Assembly: GCF_046105845.1 (NCBI RefSeq)
Contig: NZ_CP151004.1
Origin: Escherichia coli
GTDB lineage: Bacteria; Pseudomonadota; Gammaproteobacteria; Enterobacterales; Enterobacteriaceae
DNA: 64,000 nt
Direction: 5' to 3' (one strand)
Part shown: piece by piece, positions 692 to 55,781 of the stretch
Position numbering within the stretch: position 1 is the stretch's first letter
How the letters are laid out: each line of letters opens with the position of its first letter
The notes under the pieces: generated by a model
Database searches by the model: none
The model's input: only the letters and a program-made list of their open reading frames with translations
Told to the model about the DNA's origin: nothing
Made by a program: the position numbers and the translations under genes

Positions 692-1480
692 ATGCAAACG
701 ATTATCCGTGTCGAGAAGCTCGCCAAAACCTTCAATCAGCATCAGGCGCTGCATGCGGTTGATCTGAACATTCATCACGGTGAAATGGTGGCTCTGCTTG
801 GGCCGTCCGGTTCCGGCAAATCCACCCTTTTACGTCATTTAAGCGGTTTGATTACCGGCGATAAATCTGCCGGTAGCCATATCGAGCTGCTGGGCCGCAC
901 AGTCCAGCGCGAAGGCCGCCTGGCCCGCGATATCCGCAAAAGCCGCGCCAACACCGGCTACATCTTCCAACAATTCAACCTGGTGAATCGCCTGAGCGTA
1001 CTGGAGAACGTGCTGATTGGCGCGCTCGGCAGCACGCCATTCTGGCGCACCTGTTTTAGTTGGTTCACCCGCGAGCAGAAACAGCGCGCGTTACAGGCGC
1101 TGACCCGTGTTGGCATGGTGCACTTTGCCCATCAGCGCGTTTCCACCCTCTCCGGCGGACAGCAGCAGCGTGTGGCAATTGCCCGTGCGCTGATGCAGCA
1201 GGCGAAGGTGATTCTGGCCGATGAACCCATCGCCTCGCTGGACCCGGAATCGGCGCGCATCGTGATGGACACCCTGCGCGACATTAACCAGAACGACGGC
1301 ATTACCGTGGTCGTCACGCTGCATCAGGTGGATTACGCCCTGCGCTACTGCGAACGCATCGTCGCCCTGCGCCAGGGGCACGTCTTCTACGACGGCAGCA
1401 GCCAACAGTTTGATAACGAACGTTTTGACCATCTCTACCGCAGCATCAACCGCGTCGAAGAAAACGCGAAAGCTGCCTGA
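692..1480 (+). CDS. phnC: Phosphonate ABC transporter ATP-binding protein PhnC
   Basis: ORF track 262 aa; Walker [13 protein letters not shown] signature LSGGQQQR; GGGAGG RBS upstream. Confidence 0.95.
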
Positions 1481-16027: not shown

Positions 16028-18078
16028 TGAGCGCGCTCAACTCCCTGCCATTACCGGTGGTCAGGCTGCTGGCGTTCTTTCATGAAGAGTTAAGCGAGCG
16101 GCGACCAGGCCGTGTGCCGCAGACTATGCAACTCTGGGTAGGCTGCCTGCTGGTGATTCTGATCTCGATGACTTTTGAGATCCCTTTTGTGGCGTTATCA
16201 CTGGCAGTGCTGTTTTACGGTATTCAGTCGAACGCGTTTTACACCAAATTTGTGGCGATCTTGTTTGTGGTCGCCACGATGCTGGAAATCGCCAGCCTGT
16301 TTTTGATCTACAAATGGTCATATGGCGAACCGTTGATCCGATTGATCATTGCCGGACCGATCCTGATGGGCTGTATGTTTTTGATGCGCACCCATCGGCT
16401 GGGGCTGGTCTTTTTCGCCGTCGCCATTGTCGCTATTTACGGGCAAACCTTCCCCGCCATGCTCGACTATCCGGAAGTGGTCGTGCGCTTAACCCTGTGG
16501 TGTATCGTTGTTGGCCTCTATCCAACCTTGCTGATGACGTTAATCGGCGTGCTGTGGTTTCCCAGCCGCGCCATTACGCAAATGCATCAAGCGCTTAATG
16601 ATCGGCTTGATGATGCCATTAGTCACCTGACGGACAGCCTCGCACCGCTACCCGAAACGCGGATTGAAAGAGAGGCGCTGGCGCTGCAAAAACTCAATGT
16701 CTTTTGCCTCGCGGACGATGCCAACTGGCGAACTCAGAGCGCATGGTGGCAAAGCTGCGTGGCAACGGTAACCTACATTTACTCGACGCTGAATCGCTAC
16801 GATCCCACCTCTTTTGCTGATTCTCAGGCAATTATTGAATTTCGGCAAAAATTAGCCACAGAAATCAACAAACTGCAGCATGCCATTGCCGAAGGTCAGT
16901 GCTGGCAAAGCGACTGGCGGATCAGTGAAAGTGAAGCGATGGCGGCACGGGAATGTAACCTGGAGAATATCTGCCAGACGTTATTGCAACTGGGTCAGAT
17001 GGACCCGAATACGCCGCCAACGCCCGCCACCAAACCGCCATCAATGGTCGCCGACGCTTTTACCAATCCAGACTATATGCGCTACGCGGTAAAAACGCTG
17101 CTCGCCTGTTTGATCTGTTACACCTTCTACAGCGGCGTGGACTGGGAAGGCATTCACACCTGTATGCTGACCTGCGTGATCGTCGCTAACCCGAATGTTG
17201 GTTCGTCGTATCAGAAAATGGCGCTGCGTTTTGGCGGTGCCTTCTGCGGTGCAATTCTGGCGCTGTTATTCACGTTACTGGTCATGCCCTGGCTGGACAA
17301 TATTTTCGAATTGCTATTTGTGCTGGCACCGATTTTCCTGTTGGGCGCATGGATTGCCACCAGCTCTGAACGCTCTTCTTATATCGGCACACAGATGGTG
17401 GTCACCTTCGCGCTCGCCACGCTCGAAAACGTTTTTGGCCCGGTGTACGACCTGGTGGAAATTCGCGATCGCGCCCTGGGTATCATCATTGGTACCGTGG
17501 TGTCCGCGGTGATTTACACCTTTGTCTGGCCTGAAAGTGAAGCGCGCACACTGCCGCAAAAACTGGCTGGCGCGCTGGGTATGTTGAGTAAAGTAATGCG
17601 GATCCCACGCCAGCAGGAAGTCACAGCTCTGCGCACTTATTTGCAAATTCGTATAGGTCTGCATGCGGCGTTTAATGCCTGTGAAGAGATGTGCCAACGC
17701 GTGGCGCTGGAGCGTCAACTGGACAGCGAAGAACGCGCTTTACTGATTGAACGTTCGCAAACGGTTATTCGTCAGGGCCGCGATATTCTTCACGCCTGGG
17801 ATGCAACCTGGAACTCGGCGCAGGCGCTGGATAACGCACTACAGCCGGACAGAGCAGGTCAGTTTGCCGACGCACTGGAGAAATACGCCGCCGGTCTGGC
17901 AACCGCACTCAGCCGTTCTCCTCAAATAACGCTTGAAGAAACACCCGCCTCGCAGGCCATCCTGCCCACCTTATTAAAACAGGAGCAACACGTCTGCCAG
18001 CTTTTCGCCCGCTTGCCAGACTGGACAGCCCCGGCATTAACGCCCGCCACGGAACAGGCACAAGGAGCCACGCAATGA
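16027..18078 (+). CDS. mdtO: Multidrug efflux inner-membrane protein MdtO
   Basis: ORF track 683 aa; ATGA overlap with mdtN. Confidence 0.95.
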   Translation: MSALNSLPLPVVRLLAFFHEELSERRPGRVPQTMQLWVGCLLVILISMTFEIPFVALSLAVLFYGIQSNAFYTKFVAILFVVATMLEIASLFLIYKWSYGEPLIRLIIAGPILMGCMFLMRTHRLGLVFFAVAIVAIYGQTFPAMLDYPEVVVRLTLWCIVVGLYPTLLMTLIGVLWFPSRAITQMHQALNDRLDDAISHLTDSLAPLPETRIEREALALQKLNVFCLADDANWRTQSAWWQSCVATVTYIYSTLNRYDPTSFADSQAIIEFRQKLATEINKLQHAIAEGQCWQSDWRISESEAMAARECNLENICQTLLQLGQMDPNTPPTPATKPPSMVADAFTNPDYMRYAVKTLLACLICYTFYSGVDWEGIHTCMLTCVIVANPNVGSSYQKMALRFGGAFCGAILALLFTLLVMPWLDNIFELLFVLAPIFLLGAWIATSSERSSYIGTQMVVTFALATLENVFGPVYDLVEIRDRALGIIIGTVVSAVIYTFVWPESEARTLPQKLAGALGMLSKVMRIPRQQEVTALRTYLQIRIGLHAAFNACEEMCQRVALERQLDSEERALLIERSQTVIRQGRDILHAWDATWNSAQALDNALQPDRAGQFADALEKYAAGLATALSRSPQITLEETPASQAILPTLLKQEQHVCQLFARLPDWTAPALTPATEQAQGATQ

Positions 18079-19541
18079 TCAATCGTCAACTTTCACGTCT
18101 GCTGTTGTGCAGCATTCTCGGCAGCACGACGCTGATTTCCGGCTGTGCCCTGGTACGCAAGGATTCTGCGCCTCATCAACAGCTCAAACCTGAACAAATC
18201 AAACTGGCCGATGATATTCATCTTGCCAGCTCCGGCTGGCCGCAGGCGCAGTGGTGGAAACAACTCAATGACCCGCAGTTGGATGCCCTGATCCAACGGA
18301 CGCTAAGTGGTTCACACACCCTCGCCGAAGCGAAACTGCGGGAAGAAAAAGCGCAGTCCCAGGCCGATTTGTTAGATGCTGGTTCACAGTTGCAAGTGGC
18401 AGCGTTAGGGATGCTCAACCGCCAACGTGTCTCGGCGAACGGCTTTTTAAGCCCTTATGCGATGGATGCGCCCGCACTGGGGATGGACGGGCCGTACTAT
18501 ACGGAAGCCACAGTCGGTTTGTTTGCCGGATTGGATCTCGATTTGTGGGGTGTGCATCGCTCAGCGGTTGCCGCTGCCATTGGCGCGCATAATGCCGCGC
18601 TGGCAGAAACCGCAGCAGTAGAGCTATCGCTGACCACGGGCGTAGCGCAGCTTTATTACAGTATGCAGGCCAGCTATCAGATGCTCGATCTGTTAGAACA
18701 AACTCGCGATGTGATTGATTACGCGGTAAAAGCGCACCAGAGTAAAGTGGCGCACGGTCTGGAAGCGCAAGTGCCTTTCCACGGCGCGCGGGCACAGATT
18801 CTGGCGGTCGATAAACAAATTGCTGCCGTTAAAGGGCAAATCTCCGAAACGCGAGAATCTCTGCGCGCATTGATTGGCGCGGGAGCCAGCGATATGCCGG
18901 AGATCAGACCGGTGGCATTACCGCAAGTCCAGACCGGCATTCCGGCGACACTCTCTTATGAGTTGCTCGCCAGACGCCCGGATCTGCAAGCCATGCGCTG
19001 GTATGTTCAGGCGTCATTAGATCAGGTGGATTCCGCGCGGGCGCTGTTCTATCCGAGCTTTGATATCAAAGCGTTTTTCGGCCTGGATTCTATCCACCTG
19101 GATACCTTATTCAAAAAAACCAGTCGCCAGTTCAACTTTATCCCAGGTCTGAAATTGCCGCTGTTTGACGGTGGACGGTTGAATGCCAATCTCGAAGGCA
19201 CTCGCGCCGCCAGCAACATGATGATTGAACGTTACAACCAGTCAGTGCTGAATGCGGTGCGCGACGTTGCCGTCAACGGCACGCGTCTGCAAACGCTCAA
19301 CGACGAGCGAGAGATGCAGGCTGAACGCGTAGAAGCAACGCGCTTCACCCAGCGCGCTGCCGAGGCCGCCTATCAACGCGGCTTAACCAGCCGCTTACAG
19401 GCCACCGAAGCCCGGTTGCCAGTGCTTGCCGAGGAGATGTCATTACTGATGCTGGACAGCCGCCGGGTGATCCAAAGCATTCAGTTGATGAAATCGCTGG
19501 GCGGCGGGTATCAGGCAAGTCCCGTCGTCGAGAAAAAATAA
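18075..19541 (+). CDS. mdtP: Multidrug efflux outer-membrane channel MdtP
   Basis: ORF track 488 aa; lipobox ISGC; overlaps mdtO stop. Confidence 0.95.
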   Translation: MINRQLSRLLLCSILGSTTLISGCALVRKDSAPHQQLKPEQIKLADDIHLASSGWPQAQWWKQLNDPQLDALIQRTLSGSHTLAEAKLREEKAQSQADLLDAGSQLQVAALGMLNRQRVSANGFLSPYAMDAPALGMDGPYYTEATVGLFAGLDLDLWGVHRSAVAAAIGAHNAALAETAAVELSLTTGVAQLYYSMQASYQMLDLLEQTRDVIDYAVKAHQSKVAHGLEAQVPFHGARAQILAVDKQIAAVKGQISETRESLRALIGAGASDMPEIRPVALPQVQTGIPATLSYELLARRPDLQAMRWYVQASLDQVDSARALFYPSFDIKAFFGLDSIHLDTLFKKTSRQFNFIPGLKLPLFDGGRLNANLEGTRAASNMMIERYNQSVLNAVRDVAVNGTRLQTLNDEREMQAERVEATRFTQRAAEAAYQRGLTSRLQATEARLPVLAEEMSLLMLDSRRVIQSIQLMKSLGGGYQASPVVEKK

Positions 19542-19671
19542 AATGTCTGCCGCGTGATGGCTGTCACGCGGTATTTCGTTTCGTCACGTCAAAACTGACG
19601 ACAGCCTGTTTTTCGTCAGAGTTTTGAATAAATAGTGCCCGTAATATCAGGGAATGACCCCAAATAAAATG

Positions 19672-19687
19672 TGGCATAAAAGATGCA
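19672..19687 (+). promoter_or_regulatory. Sigma-54 (-24/-12) promoter of fdhF
   Basis: TGGCATAAAAGATGCA: GG and GC spaced as in the TGGCAC-N5-TTGCA consensus, about 50 nt upstream of fdhF ATG. Confidence 0.75.
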
Positions 19688-19738
19688 TACTGTAGTCGAG
19701 AGCGCGTATGCGTGATTTGATTAACTGGAGCGAGACCG

Positions 19739-21886
19739 ATGAAAAAAGTCGTCACGGTTTGCCCCTATTGCGCATCAGGTTGCAAAATCAACCTGGTCGT
19801 CGATAACGGCAAAATCGTCCGGGCGGAGGCAGCGCAGGGGAAAACCAACCAGGGTACCCTGTGTCTGAAGGGTTATTATGGCTGGGACTTCATTAACGAT
19901 ACCCAGATCCTGACCCCGCGCCTGAAAACCCCCATGATCCGTCGCCAGCGTGGCGGCAAACTCGAACCTGTTTCCTGGGATGAGGCACTGAATTACGTTG
20001 CCGAGCGCCTGAGCGCCATCAAAGAGAAGTACGGTCCGGATGCCATCCAGACGACCGGCTCCTCGCGTGGTACGGGTAACGAAACCAACTATGTAATGCA
20101 AAAATTTGCGCGCGCCGTTATTGGTACCAATAACGTTGACTGCTGCGCTCGTGTCTGACACGGCCCATCGGTTGCAGGTCTGCACCAATCGGTCGGTAAT
20201 GGCGCAATGAGCAATGCTATTAACGAAATTGATAATACCGATTTAGTGTTCGTTTTCGGGTACAACCCGGCGGATTCCCACCCAATCGTGGCGAACCACG
20301 TAATTAACGCTAAACGTAACGGGGCGAAAATTATCGTCTGCGATCCGCGCAAAATTGAAACCGCGCGCATTGCTGACATGCACATTGCACTGAAAAACGG
20401 CTCGAACATCGCGCTGTTGAATGCGATGGGTCATGTCATTATTGAAGAAAACCTGTACGACAAAGCGTTCGTCGCTTCCCGTACAGAAGGCTTTGAAGAG
20501 TATCGTAAAATCGTTGAAGGCTACACGCCGGAGTCGGTTGAAGATATCACCGGCGTCAGCGCCAGTGAGATTCGTCAGGCGGCGCGGATGTATGCCCAGG
20601 CGAAAAGCGCCGCCATCCTGTGGGGCATGGGTGTAACCCAGTTCTACCAGGGCGTGGAAACCGTGCGTTCTCTGACCAGCCTCGCGATGCTGACTGGTAA
20701 CCTCGGTAAGCCGCATGCGGGTGTAAACCCGGTTCGTGGTCAGAACAACGTGCAGGGTGCCTGCGATATGGGCGCGCTGCCGGATACGTATCCGGGATAC
20801 CAGTACGTAAAAGATCCGGCTAACCGCGAGAAATTCGCCAAAGCCTGGGGCGTGGAAAGCCTGCCTGCTCATACCGGTTATCGCATCAGCGAGCTGCCGC
20901 ACCGCGCAGCGCATGGCGAAGTGCGTGCCGCGTACATTATGGGCGAAGATCCGCTGCAAACTGACGCGGAGCTGTCGGCAGTACGTAAAGCCTTTGAAGA
21001 TCTGGAACTGGTTATCGTTCAGGACATCTTTATGACCAAAACCGCGTCGGCGGCGGATGTTATTTTACCGTCAACGTCGTGGGGCGAGCATGAAGGCGTG
21101 TTTACTGCGGCTGACCGTGGCTTCCAGCGTTTCTTCAAAGCAGTTGAACCGAAATGGGATCTGAAAACGGACTGGCAAATCATCAGTGAAATCGCCACCC
21201 GTATGGGTTATCCGATGCACTACAACAACACCCAGGAGATCTGGGATGAGTTGCGTCATCTGTGCCCGGATTTCTACGGTGCGACTTACGAGAAAATGGG
21301 CGAACTGGGCTTCATTCAGTGGCCTTGCCGCGATACTTCAGATGCCGATCAGGGGACTTCTTATCTGTTTAAAGAGAAGTTTGATACCCCGAACGGTCTG
21401 GCGCAGTTCTTCACCTGCGACTGGGTAGCGCCAATCGACAAACTCACCGACGAATATCCGATGGTACTGTCAACGGTGCGTGAAGTTGGTCACTACTCTT
21501 GCCGTTCGATGACCGGTAACTGTGCGGCACTGGCGGCGCTGGCTGATGAACCTGGCTACGCACAAATCAATACCGAAGACGCCAAACGTCTGGGTATTGA
21601 AGATGAGGCATTGGTTTGGGTGCACTCGCGTAAAGGCAAAATTATCACCCGTGCGCAGGTCAGCGATCGCCCGAACAAAGGGGCGATTTACATGACCTAC
21701 CAGTGGTGGATTGGTGCCTGTAACGAGCTGGTTACCGAAAACTTAAGCCCGATTACGAAAACGCCGGAATACAAATACTGCGCCGTGCGCGTCGAGCCGA
21801 TCGCCGATCAGCGCGCCGCCGAGCAGTACGTGATTGACGAGTACAACAAGTTGAAAACTCGCCTGCGCGAAGCGGCACTGGCGTAA
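19739..21886 (+). CDS. fdhF: Formate dehydrogenase H (selenoprotein); in-frame UGA at 20156..20158 read as selenocysteine
   Basis: ORF track pieces 19739..20158 and 20207..21886 are in one frame separated by TGA; combined 715 aa; CxxCxxGC 4Fe-4S motif at N-terminus; ...CARV-U-HGPSVAG context. Confidence 0.95.
20156..20204 (+). promoter_or_regulatory. SECIS element (SelB-binding mRNA hairpin) directly 3' of the fdhF UGA
   Basis: UGA followed by cacggcccatcggttgcaggtctgcaccaatcggtcggtaatggcg, which can fold as a stem-loop. Confidence 0.85.
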
Positions 21887-28066: not shown

Positions 28067-28734
28067 TGGCTCACCTCCCCGTATTTAAACGGTACGCGGT
28101 ACAGCTTCGGTTTGGTTCCCAGCGCCAGCTTGTAGCGGTAAGTGGGCTTCTGGCGCAGCAGTTGCGAAATCTCACTGTTGGGATCGTCCAGATTGCCAAA
28201 CGTCAGCGCCTTCGTCGGGCAAGCCTCAACGCACGCGGGCAGCTTACCGGCCTGCAAATTGGTCTTACGGCAGAAATCGCATTTGTCCGCTGTCTTCGTG
28301 ACCGGATGGATAAAGCGCACGCGGTACGGACAGGCGGCGATGCAGTACTGACAACCGACGCAGAGATCCGGATTTACATCGACAATCCCACTGGCAGCAT
28401 CGCGAAAAGACGCACCGGTCGGGCAGACGTCAACGCACGGCGCATGATCGCAGTGCTGGCAAGACTTACGGAAGAAGCGATATTTCACATCAGGAAATTC
28501 GCCCTGCGGCTCGCTACGAATAATCGTCAGGCGCGAGACACCTTCCGGCACCTTGTTCACTTCCCGACAAGCATCCATACAGGCGGTACAGCCGATACAT
28601 AACGACTCGTCATGCACCATGCCGTAACGCACCCCATTGATATTCAACGTTTTCGCCACCACGCGCCCTGCGGTGCCGCTGACGGCTGCCAGCACGCCGA
28701 CGCCGGTGAGAAACTGGCGACGTGACCAGGTCAT
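28063..28734 (-). CDS. nrfC: NrfC, 4Fe-4S ferredoxin-type subunit
   Basis: ORF track 223 aa; several CxxCxxCxxxCP motifs; Tat-like signal RRQFLTG. Confidence 0.95.
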
Positions 28735-55760: not shown

Positions 55761-55781
55761 GGCATTACAAGAATCATGCCA
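55761..55781 (-). promoter_or_regulatory. Putative sigma-54 promoter of pspG
   Basis: Minus-strand TGGCATGATTCTTGTA resembles TGGCAC-N5-TTGCA with one -12 mismatch, about 30 nt upstream of pspG ATG. Confidence 0.45.

Follow-up and report, generated by a model that had tools for sequence, protein, structure and literature searches.

Background

The fdhF gene encodes formate dehydrogenase H, and the fdhF promoter with its upstream activating sequence (UAS) is a classic model of formate-responsive sigma-54 transcription. Deletion analysis by Birkmann and Bock in 1989 reportedly placed the fdhF UAS around -110, and direct footprints of FhlA on fdhF are said to have been obtained by Schlensog in 1994 and by Leonhartsberger in 2000. 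Control of fdhF by FhlA and formate is described in recent reviews and studies (PMC11841067; PMC11291172), and it is established knowledge that bacterial enhancer-binding proteins act through DNA looping and ATP hydrolysis (see also PMC4987338). A sigma-54 ChIP-seq peak of E. coli, OS41, is listed with the motif GTGGCATAAAAGATGCA and a FAT (fold above threshold) of 41 (Bonocora et al., PMC4591121); the fdhF promoter at this peak is flagged as experimentally confirmed in EcoCyc (PMC4591121 Table 1), and its transcription start site (TSS) is predicted 19 nt away from the centre of the motif, which leaves 41 nt to the fdhF start (PMC4591121). The Salmonella counterpart, TGGCATAAAACATGCATA, is bound in sigma-54 ChIP-chip, and fdhF is FhlA-dependent there (PMC3844500), while gSELEX with the RpoN holoenzyme gave a peak in the fdhF/mdtP spacer (PMC8743547). 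Two descriptions of the FhlA site are available, viz., a matrix of 14 positions built from 13 sites with the form TGWC-RAWRA-TGWCA (TGWC-N5-TGWCA; PMC7658346), and a 16-bp consensus, CATTTCGTACGAAATG, which PMC4987338 credits to Leonhartsberger et al. 2000. The fdhF promoter and UAS are already in use as a formate biosensor part (PMC6540204).

Here we compare the mdtP-fdhF intergenic region of an E. coli chromosome from a non-K-12 strain with these systems. All positions refer to the window, i.e. the whole 64,000-nucleotide (64-kb) stretch of DNA that was analysed. Based on sequence and comparative evidence, we are highly confident that 19563-19687 constitutes the native fdhF control region, comprising a sigma-54 promoter and an enhancer to which FhlA is predicted to bind.

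Results and discussion

The mdtP-fdhF locus

The intergenic region spans 197 bp (19542-19738), and the RefSeq annotation has mdtP and fdhF on its two sides, with the mdtP stop codon ending at 19541. The regulated gene is as follows.

19739-21886, plus strand: fdhF coding sequence (formate dehydrogenase H), beginning with ATG; evidence from translation, RefSeq annotation, an in-frame UGA and the Rfam SECIS_2 model

The in-frame UGA selenocysteine codon is codon 140 (20156-58), and a SECIS_2 element scoring 87 bits (Rfam) at 20151-20205 is placed directly after this UGA in the manner of a classic bacterial SECIS. The naming of this open reading frame as fdhF in the first-pass annotation, made from the DNA letters without database searches, thus agrees with the UGA at codon 140, the SECIS_2 element and RefSeq alike. 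An Rfam search of the intergenic region for known RNA elements gave this SECIS, inside fdhF, as its sole match.

The stretch 19400-19900 is identical (100%) to many complete E. coli genomes, CFSAN018748 among them, and is matched in 5419/5426 complete genomes. A regulatory stretch of 156 nt is at least 99% identical in 5297/5420 E. coli records, and three records fall in the 90-95% band. Over 19485-19760, two substitutions separate K-12 from the window: a spacer base, 19663 (A to C), and a position in the coding end of mdtP. The half-sites, sigma-54 element, leader and ATG described below are all shared without change. Since K-12 differs by a single base that lies outside all of these elements, published work on K-12 should apply to the window.

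The sigma-54 promoter

The promoter features are listed below.

19672-19687, plus strand: sigma-54 -24/-12 element TGGCATAAAAGATGCA; evidence from the RpoN matrix, ChIP-seq peak OS41, the Salmonella counterpart and orthologous loci
19698, plus strand: predicted transcription start, placed by the 19-nt rule of PMC4591121

The GG and GC doublets of TGGCATAAAAGATGCA are found at 19673-74 and 19685-86, in the 12-nt register of the consensus (TGGCAC-N5-TTGCW), and the 3' end of the element lies 52 nt before the fdhF ATG at 19739. Using the 186-site RpoN matrix (PMC7658346), the element scores 13.6 bits and ranks fourth of about 128,000 window positions. The loose pattern TGGCA-N7-TGCA is not rare by itself, with two occurrences found in the 64-kb window against 1.1 expected. 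The ChIP-seq motif of OS41 is identical to the window element. An earlier reading of a good -24/-12 element about 50 nt before the fdhF ATG is therefore well founded in register, distance, matrix score and identity to the ChIP-seq motif. No sigma-70-like promoter was found in 19300-19900. We conclude that 19672-87 is the sigma-54 promoter of fdhF, its occupancy in vivo being taken from the literature.

Mapping the rule of PMC4591121 onto the window places the motif centre at 19679 and the TSS at 19698, exactly 41 nt before the ATG at 19739. The predicted fdhF leader is accordingly 41 nt long, and a Shine-Dalgarno GGAG is present at 19727-30.

Other high matches to the RpoN matrix are found elsewhere in the window. 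One of the top matches, TGGCATGATTCTTGTA at 55766-55781 (minus strand; 13.5 bits), is the known pspG sigma-54 promoter motif (OS40, PMC4591121). Three sites, at 935-950 (minus strand), 17984-17999 (minus strand, inside mdtO) and 28151-28166 (plus strand), score 13.9-15.6 bits, above the fdhF promoter. The name mdtO is absent from the text of the Bonocora ChIP-seq study (PMC4591121), and the three sites probably match by chance or are weak intragenic sites that have not been listed.

An array of half-sites upstream of the promoter

Upstream of the sigma-54 element, the intergenic region contains an array of related half-sites, the first of which lies in a terminator hairpin.

19548-19573, plus strand: mdtP intrinsic terminator hairpin followed by a T-rich tail (TTTCGTTTCG); evidence from a terminator scan and RNA folding
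19563-19567, plus strand: distal half-site GTCAC, 18 nt upstream of the first TCGTCA; identity 0.83 over 22 other genera
19581-19586, plus strand: TCGTCA, direct copy 1, abutting the dyad; identity 0.83 across genera
19587-19600, no strand assigned: perfect dyad CGTCA-AAAC-TGACG (CGTCAAAACTGACG), the predicted core enhancer site; evidence from a pattern unique in the window, the FhlA matrix and conservation
19608-19618, plus strand: TTTTTCGTCA, direct copy 2 of TCGTCA (19613-18) with a conserved T-run; contains a TTTCGT consensus half-site at 19611-16

Exact copies of TCGTCA are present on the plus strand at 19581-86 and 19613-18, and the reverse complement TGACGA at 19596-601, giving two direct copies and one inverted copy. 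The dyad is formed by CGTCA (19587-91), which abuts the first hexamer, and by the inverted copy TGACGA (19596-19601), which it overlaps; its pattern, CGWCA-N4-TGWCG, is unique in the 64-kb window. Copy 2 is followed by a degenerate partner, TTTTGA, at 19622-27, which reads TGAC in several genera. The first-pass annotation had described several direct and inverted copies of TCGTCA/TGACGA at this place. The copies are real and occur in both orientations, though three exact copies are rather fewer than "several"; the range given for them, about 60 to 110 nt upstream, is a near fit, with the hexamers lying 54-91 nt and GTCAC 109 nt upstream of TGGCA. The overlapping CGTCA at 19587-91, the distal GTCAC at 19563-67 and the mdtP terminator hairpin at 19548-19573 had been missed.

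The TCGTCA hexamer is common, occurring in 51 copies in the 64-kb window, and single copies of it are hence uninformative. This abundance, together with an unremarkable FhlA matrix score, would be in keeping with a hexamer cluster that arose by chance, with the real UAS lying elsewhere in the intergenic region. However, the 64 kb hold no other triple of TCGTCA/TGACGA within 38 bp, about 0.018 being expected at the observed density, and first-order Markov simulations gave such a triple in 0/150 runs. The best-conserved non-coding bases also fall within the cluster, whereas elsewhere upstream of the promoter the 197-bp intergenic region shows little conservation save for two blocks at 19640-48 and 19655-62. 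We regard a chance origin of the cluster as exceedingly improbable.

Conservation across fdhF loci

To place the array in a comparative setting, 80 fdhF loci were fetched at one genome per species, of which 78 had usable upstream sequence. A footprint alignment of 156 nt ending at the sigma-54 element was made from 66 unique sequences, and also with one sequence per genus. The identities below take the window as reference and cover 22 other genera.

19542-62, upstream flank: identity 0.31
19563-67, GTCAC: identity 0.83
19568-80, stretch between half-sites: identity 0.27
19581-86, TCGTCA (elsewhere mostly TCGACA): identity 0.83
19587-91, CGTCA: identity 0.97
19592-95, 4-nt dyad spacer: identity 0.45
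19596-601, TGACGA: identity 0.97
19613-18, TCGTCA: identity 0.88
19619-39, spacer DNA: identity 0.44
19640-48, CGTAATATC: identity 0.77
19649-71, spacer DNA: identity 0.50
19672-87, sigma-54 element: identity 0.86

The hexamers are the best-conserved non-coding bases across the 22 genera. In Enterobacter, Klebsiella, Kosakonia and others, the distal GTCAC keeps its 18-nt offset, and it is predicted to bind FhlA. Copy 1 reads TCGACA in most other genera, 19584 (T/A) being its sole variable position, and the CTGTTTT ahead of copy 2 has an identity of 0.8-0.9 across genera.

TGGCA-N7-TGC is present within 330 nt upstream of the start codon in 65/78 enterobacterial fdhF loci, and the dyad in 64/78, where its arms are CGTCA/TGACG in 56 of the 64 and its spacer occurs in 10 different sequences. 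Both the sigma-54 element and the dyad are present in 63 loci and neither in 12, with the promoter only in two and the dyad only in one, although neither these co-occurrence counts nor those of conservation are independent of phylogeny. The distance from the start of the dyad to TGGCA is 85 bp in 41 of the 63 loci, 86 bp in 12, 87-88 bp in four and 73-78 bp in six; in the window it is 85 bp.

The loci with neither element (for example, our loci L048, L072 and L075) carry fdhF-like genes with 80-92% protein identity, and for three of the 12, which are second copies, the same genome has a further locus bearing both elements. Presumably, these 12 are either paralogues with a different mode of control or operon-internal genes, and would perhaps make poor negative controls.

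The location of the array directly downstream of mdtP raises the question of whether its inverted repeats are RNA or terminator structure at the end of the mdtP transcript, with the hexamer cluster as a by-product. The hairpin at 19548-19573 is a strong one (-19.6 kcal/mol, z = -4.7, with 0/200 shuffles folding as well) and includes GTCAC, and CGTCAAAACTGACG could itself form a 5-bp stem. Against this, the arms of the dyad are invariant, with no covariation, while its loop or spacer varies freely; thus, the dyad appears to be a protein-binding site rather than an RNA stem. The hexamers are also kept in genera that have entirely different sequence where E. coli has its terminator, and it is the sigma-54 promoter, rather than the upstream gene, to which they keep a fixed distance. 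Besides, so short a stem (5 bp, with a loop of 4 nt) would have no obvious role behind a proper terminator. Taken together, a purely RNA-based origin of the repeats is extremely unlikely. As the 3' arm of the hairpin contains the distal GTCAC, the terminator and the fdhF enhancer overlap in E. coli.

Probable assignment of the array to FhlA

Locally, the 13-site FhlA matrix matches best at the dyad, with 8.06 bits and rank 117 of about 128,000 window positions. The matrix discriminates weakly, and its top matches in the window lie outside the fdhF region; being too weak a detector, it is given no role as main evidence here. The 16-bp FhlA consensus is matched in the region at no more than 9/16 positions over its full length, a level met by 0.6% of window positions. 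Its half-site, TTTCGT, is present in three copies (at 19574, 19579 and 19611), of which that at 19574-79 is not conserved outside Escherichia. The overlap of the hexamers with both published FhlA descriptions is thus at the level of half-sites, where it has little discriminating power alone.

A comparison with the other FhlA-dependent regions is more informative. In MG1655 (NC_000913.3), a YGWCR-N4-YGWCR unit is present in the half-site cluster upstream of hydN (CGTCACTAGTGTCG), hyfA (CGACACGGGTGTCG) and hyc/hyp (CGACATCATCGACA). The sharing of YGWCA/TGWCR half-sites with these regions suggests that the TCGTCA hexamer is an FhlA half-site plus one base. Relative to the predicted TSS at 19698, copy 1 and the dyad (19581-19601) extend from -117 to -97, which fits the reported position of the UAS around -110. 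The proposal that the TCGTCA repeats are the FhlA UAS is therefore supported by their conservation, by their co-occurrence with the sigma-54 promoter, by the fixed distance of 85-86 bp, by the overlap with the FhlA matrix and half-site, and by the units shared with hydN, hyfA and hyc/hyp.

The repeats might nevertheless bind, mainly or additionally, another regulator, the most plausible being HyfR, an FhlA paralogue with a related DNA-binding domain, followed by NarL/NarP or ModE. A dyad of this kind is also present upstream of hyfA, so that sites could be common to several FhlA-like proteins; cross-binding by HyfR would, however, add to FhlA binding and not replace it. The consensus sequences of the NarL heptamer (TACYYMT) and of the ModE operator are unlike the TCGTCA motif, which counts against NarL and ModE as readers of the repeats. 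It is true that PMC2636881 lists repression of fdhF by NarL and secondary activation of the regulon by ModE. Yet the repeat motif is common to all four FhlA-dependent regions and overlaps both published FhlA descriptions, and the position of the repeats at a fixed distance from a sigma-54 promoter is the enhancer geometry of an enhancer-binding protein. We consider another regulator very unlikely, and FhlA remains the preferred ligand of the array.

The spacer between enhancer and promoter

Two blocks stand out in the DNA between the enhancer and the promoter.

19640-19648, no strand assigned: conserved spacer block CGTAATATC, at about -58 to -50; identity 0.77 against 0.44-0.50 for neighbouring spacer DNA (22 genera)
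19655-19662, no strand assigned: second conserved spacer block ATGACCCC, which is ATACCCAC in most other genera

IHF is a weak candidate for the reader of the conserved spacer block: the fit of TATCAGGGAATGA to WATCAR-N4-TTR, with a single mismatch, is confined to E. coli, and other genera do not keep the TTR part. We also note that ATACCCAC resembles the NarL heptamer at 6/7 positions. In E. coli clone D i2 (our locus L086; NC_017651.1), a 10-bp tandem duplication, TTTTGAATAA, is present between the UAS and the promoter (at window position 19621/19622), bringing their distance to 95 bp. Along with the class of loci at 73-78 bp, this duplication hints that the spacing of UAS and promoter may change in whole helical turns.

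The fdhF region may even exceed its two textbook elements, with the blocks CGTAATATC and ATGACCCC/ATACCCAC serving as the site of an additional factor, such as a protein that bends DNA or a modulator of the NarL or ModE type, and with the distance limited to whole helical turns (85-88, 73-78 and 95 bp). We put this forward as a speculation that we ourselves consider unlikely.

A plausible mechanism of formate-responsive activation

The arrangement of these elements allows us to propose a scheme for the control of fdhF. RNA polymerase with sigma-54 would occupy TGGCAT-N6-TGCA (19672-87) as a closed complex unable to initiate by itself. The enhancer, some 80 bp further upstream, would be made of half-sites of the (T)CG(T/A)CA type, viz., the dyad (19587-600), the direct copies at 19581-86 and 19613-18, and the distal GTCAC (19563-67), and FhlA oligomers would assemble on this array between 19563 and 19620. 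During fermentation, formate accumulating in the cytoplasm would activate the ATPase of FhlA. The bound oligomer would then loop out the spacer of roughly 80 bp and remodel the closed complex into an open one, from which transcription would proceed from about 19698 via the 41-nt leader. That fdhF depends on FhlA and formate, and that sigma-54 binds in vivo, is taken from the published studies; the particular half-sites contacted by FhlA, its oligomeric state, the geometry of the loop and the exact TSS are predictions of the scheme.

Comparison with known systems

A sigma-54 promoter with an FhlA enhancer upstream of fdhF is an already known system at a known locus, and, this being a classic model, the present assignment has little import beyond annotation. 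The comparison does sharpen the picture, with four to five half-sites, a dyad that is independent of its spacer sequence, and a promoter distance of 85-86 bp under selection. It also flags the two conserved spacer blocks, and the comparative data could guide the design of minimal promoters for biosensors.

The closest system is the E. coli K-12 fdhF promoter and UAS (EcoCyc fdhFp), which is the same locus as that of the window, with no functional differences. The enhancers of hycA/hypA, hydN-hypF and hyfA are similar to that of fdhF in having three to six YGWCA/TGWCR half-sites about 80-130 bp upstream of the sigma-54 element. They differ in detail: fdhF has a perfect CGTCA/TGACG inverted repeat with extra direct copies, whereas in the hyc/hyp unit, CGACA-TCAT-CGACA, the repeat is direct. 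IHF has been reported at hyc and hyp; it is not listed for fdhF (PMC2636881), the spacer of which has conserved GC-containing blocks instead. Among more distant systems, those of the NtrC class (for example, glnAp2 with its NtrC sites) share with fdhF a -24/-12 promoter, the lack of a -35/-10 promoter and a set of several activator sites some 100 bp upstream. However, FhlA at fdhF is controlled by a ligand, formate, and NtrC by phosphorylation, and the sequence of the fdhF sites differs from the NtrC consensus.
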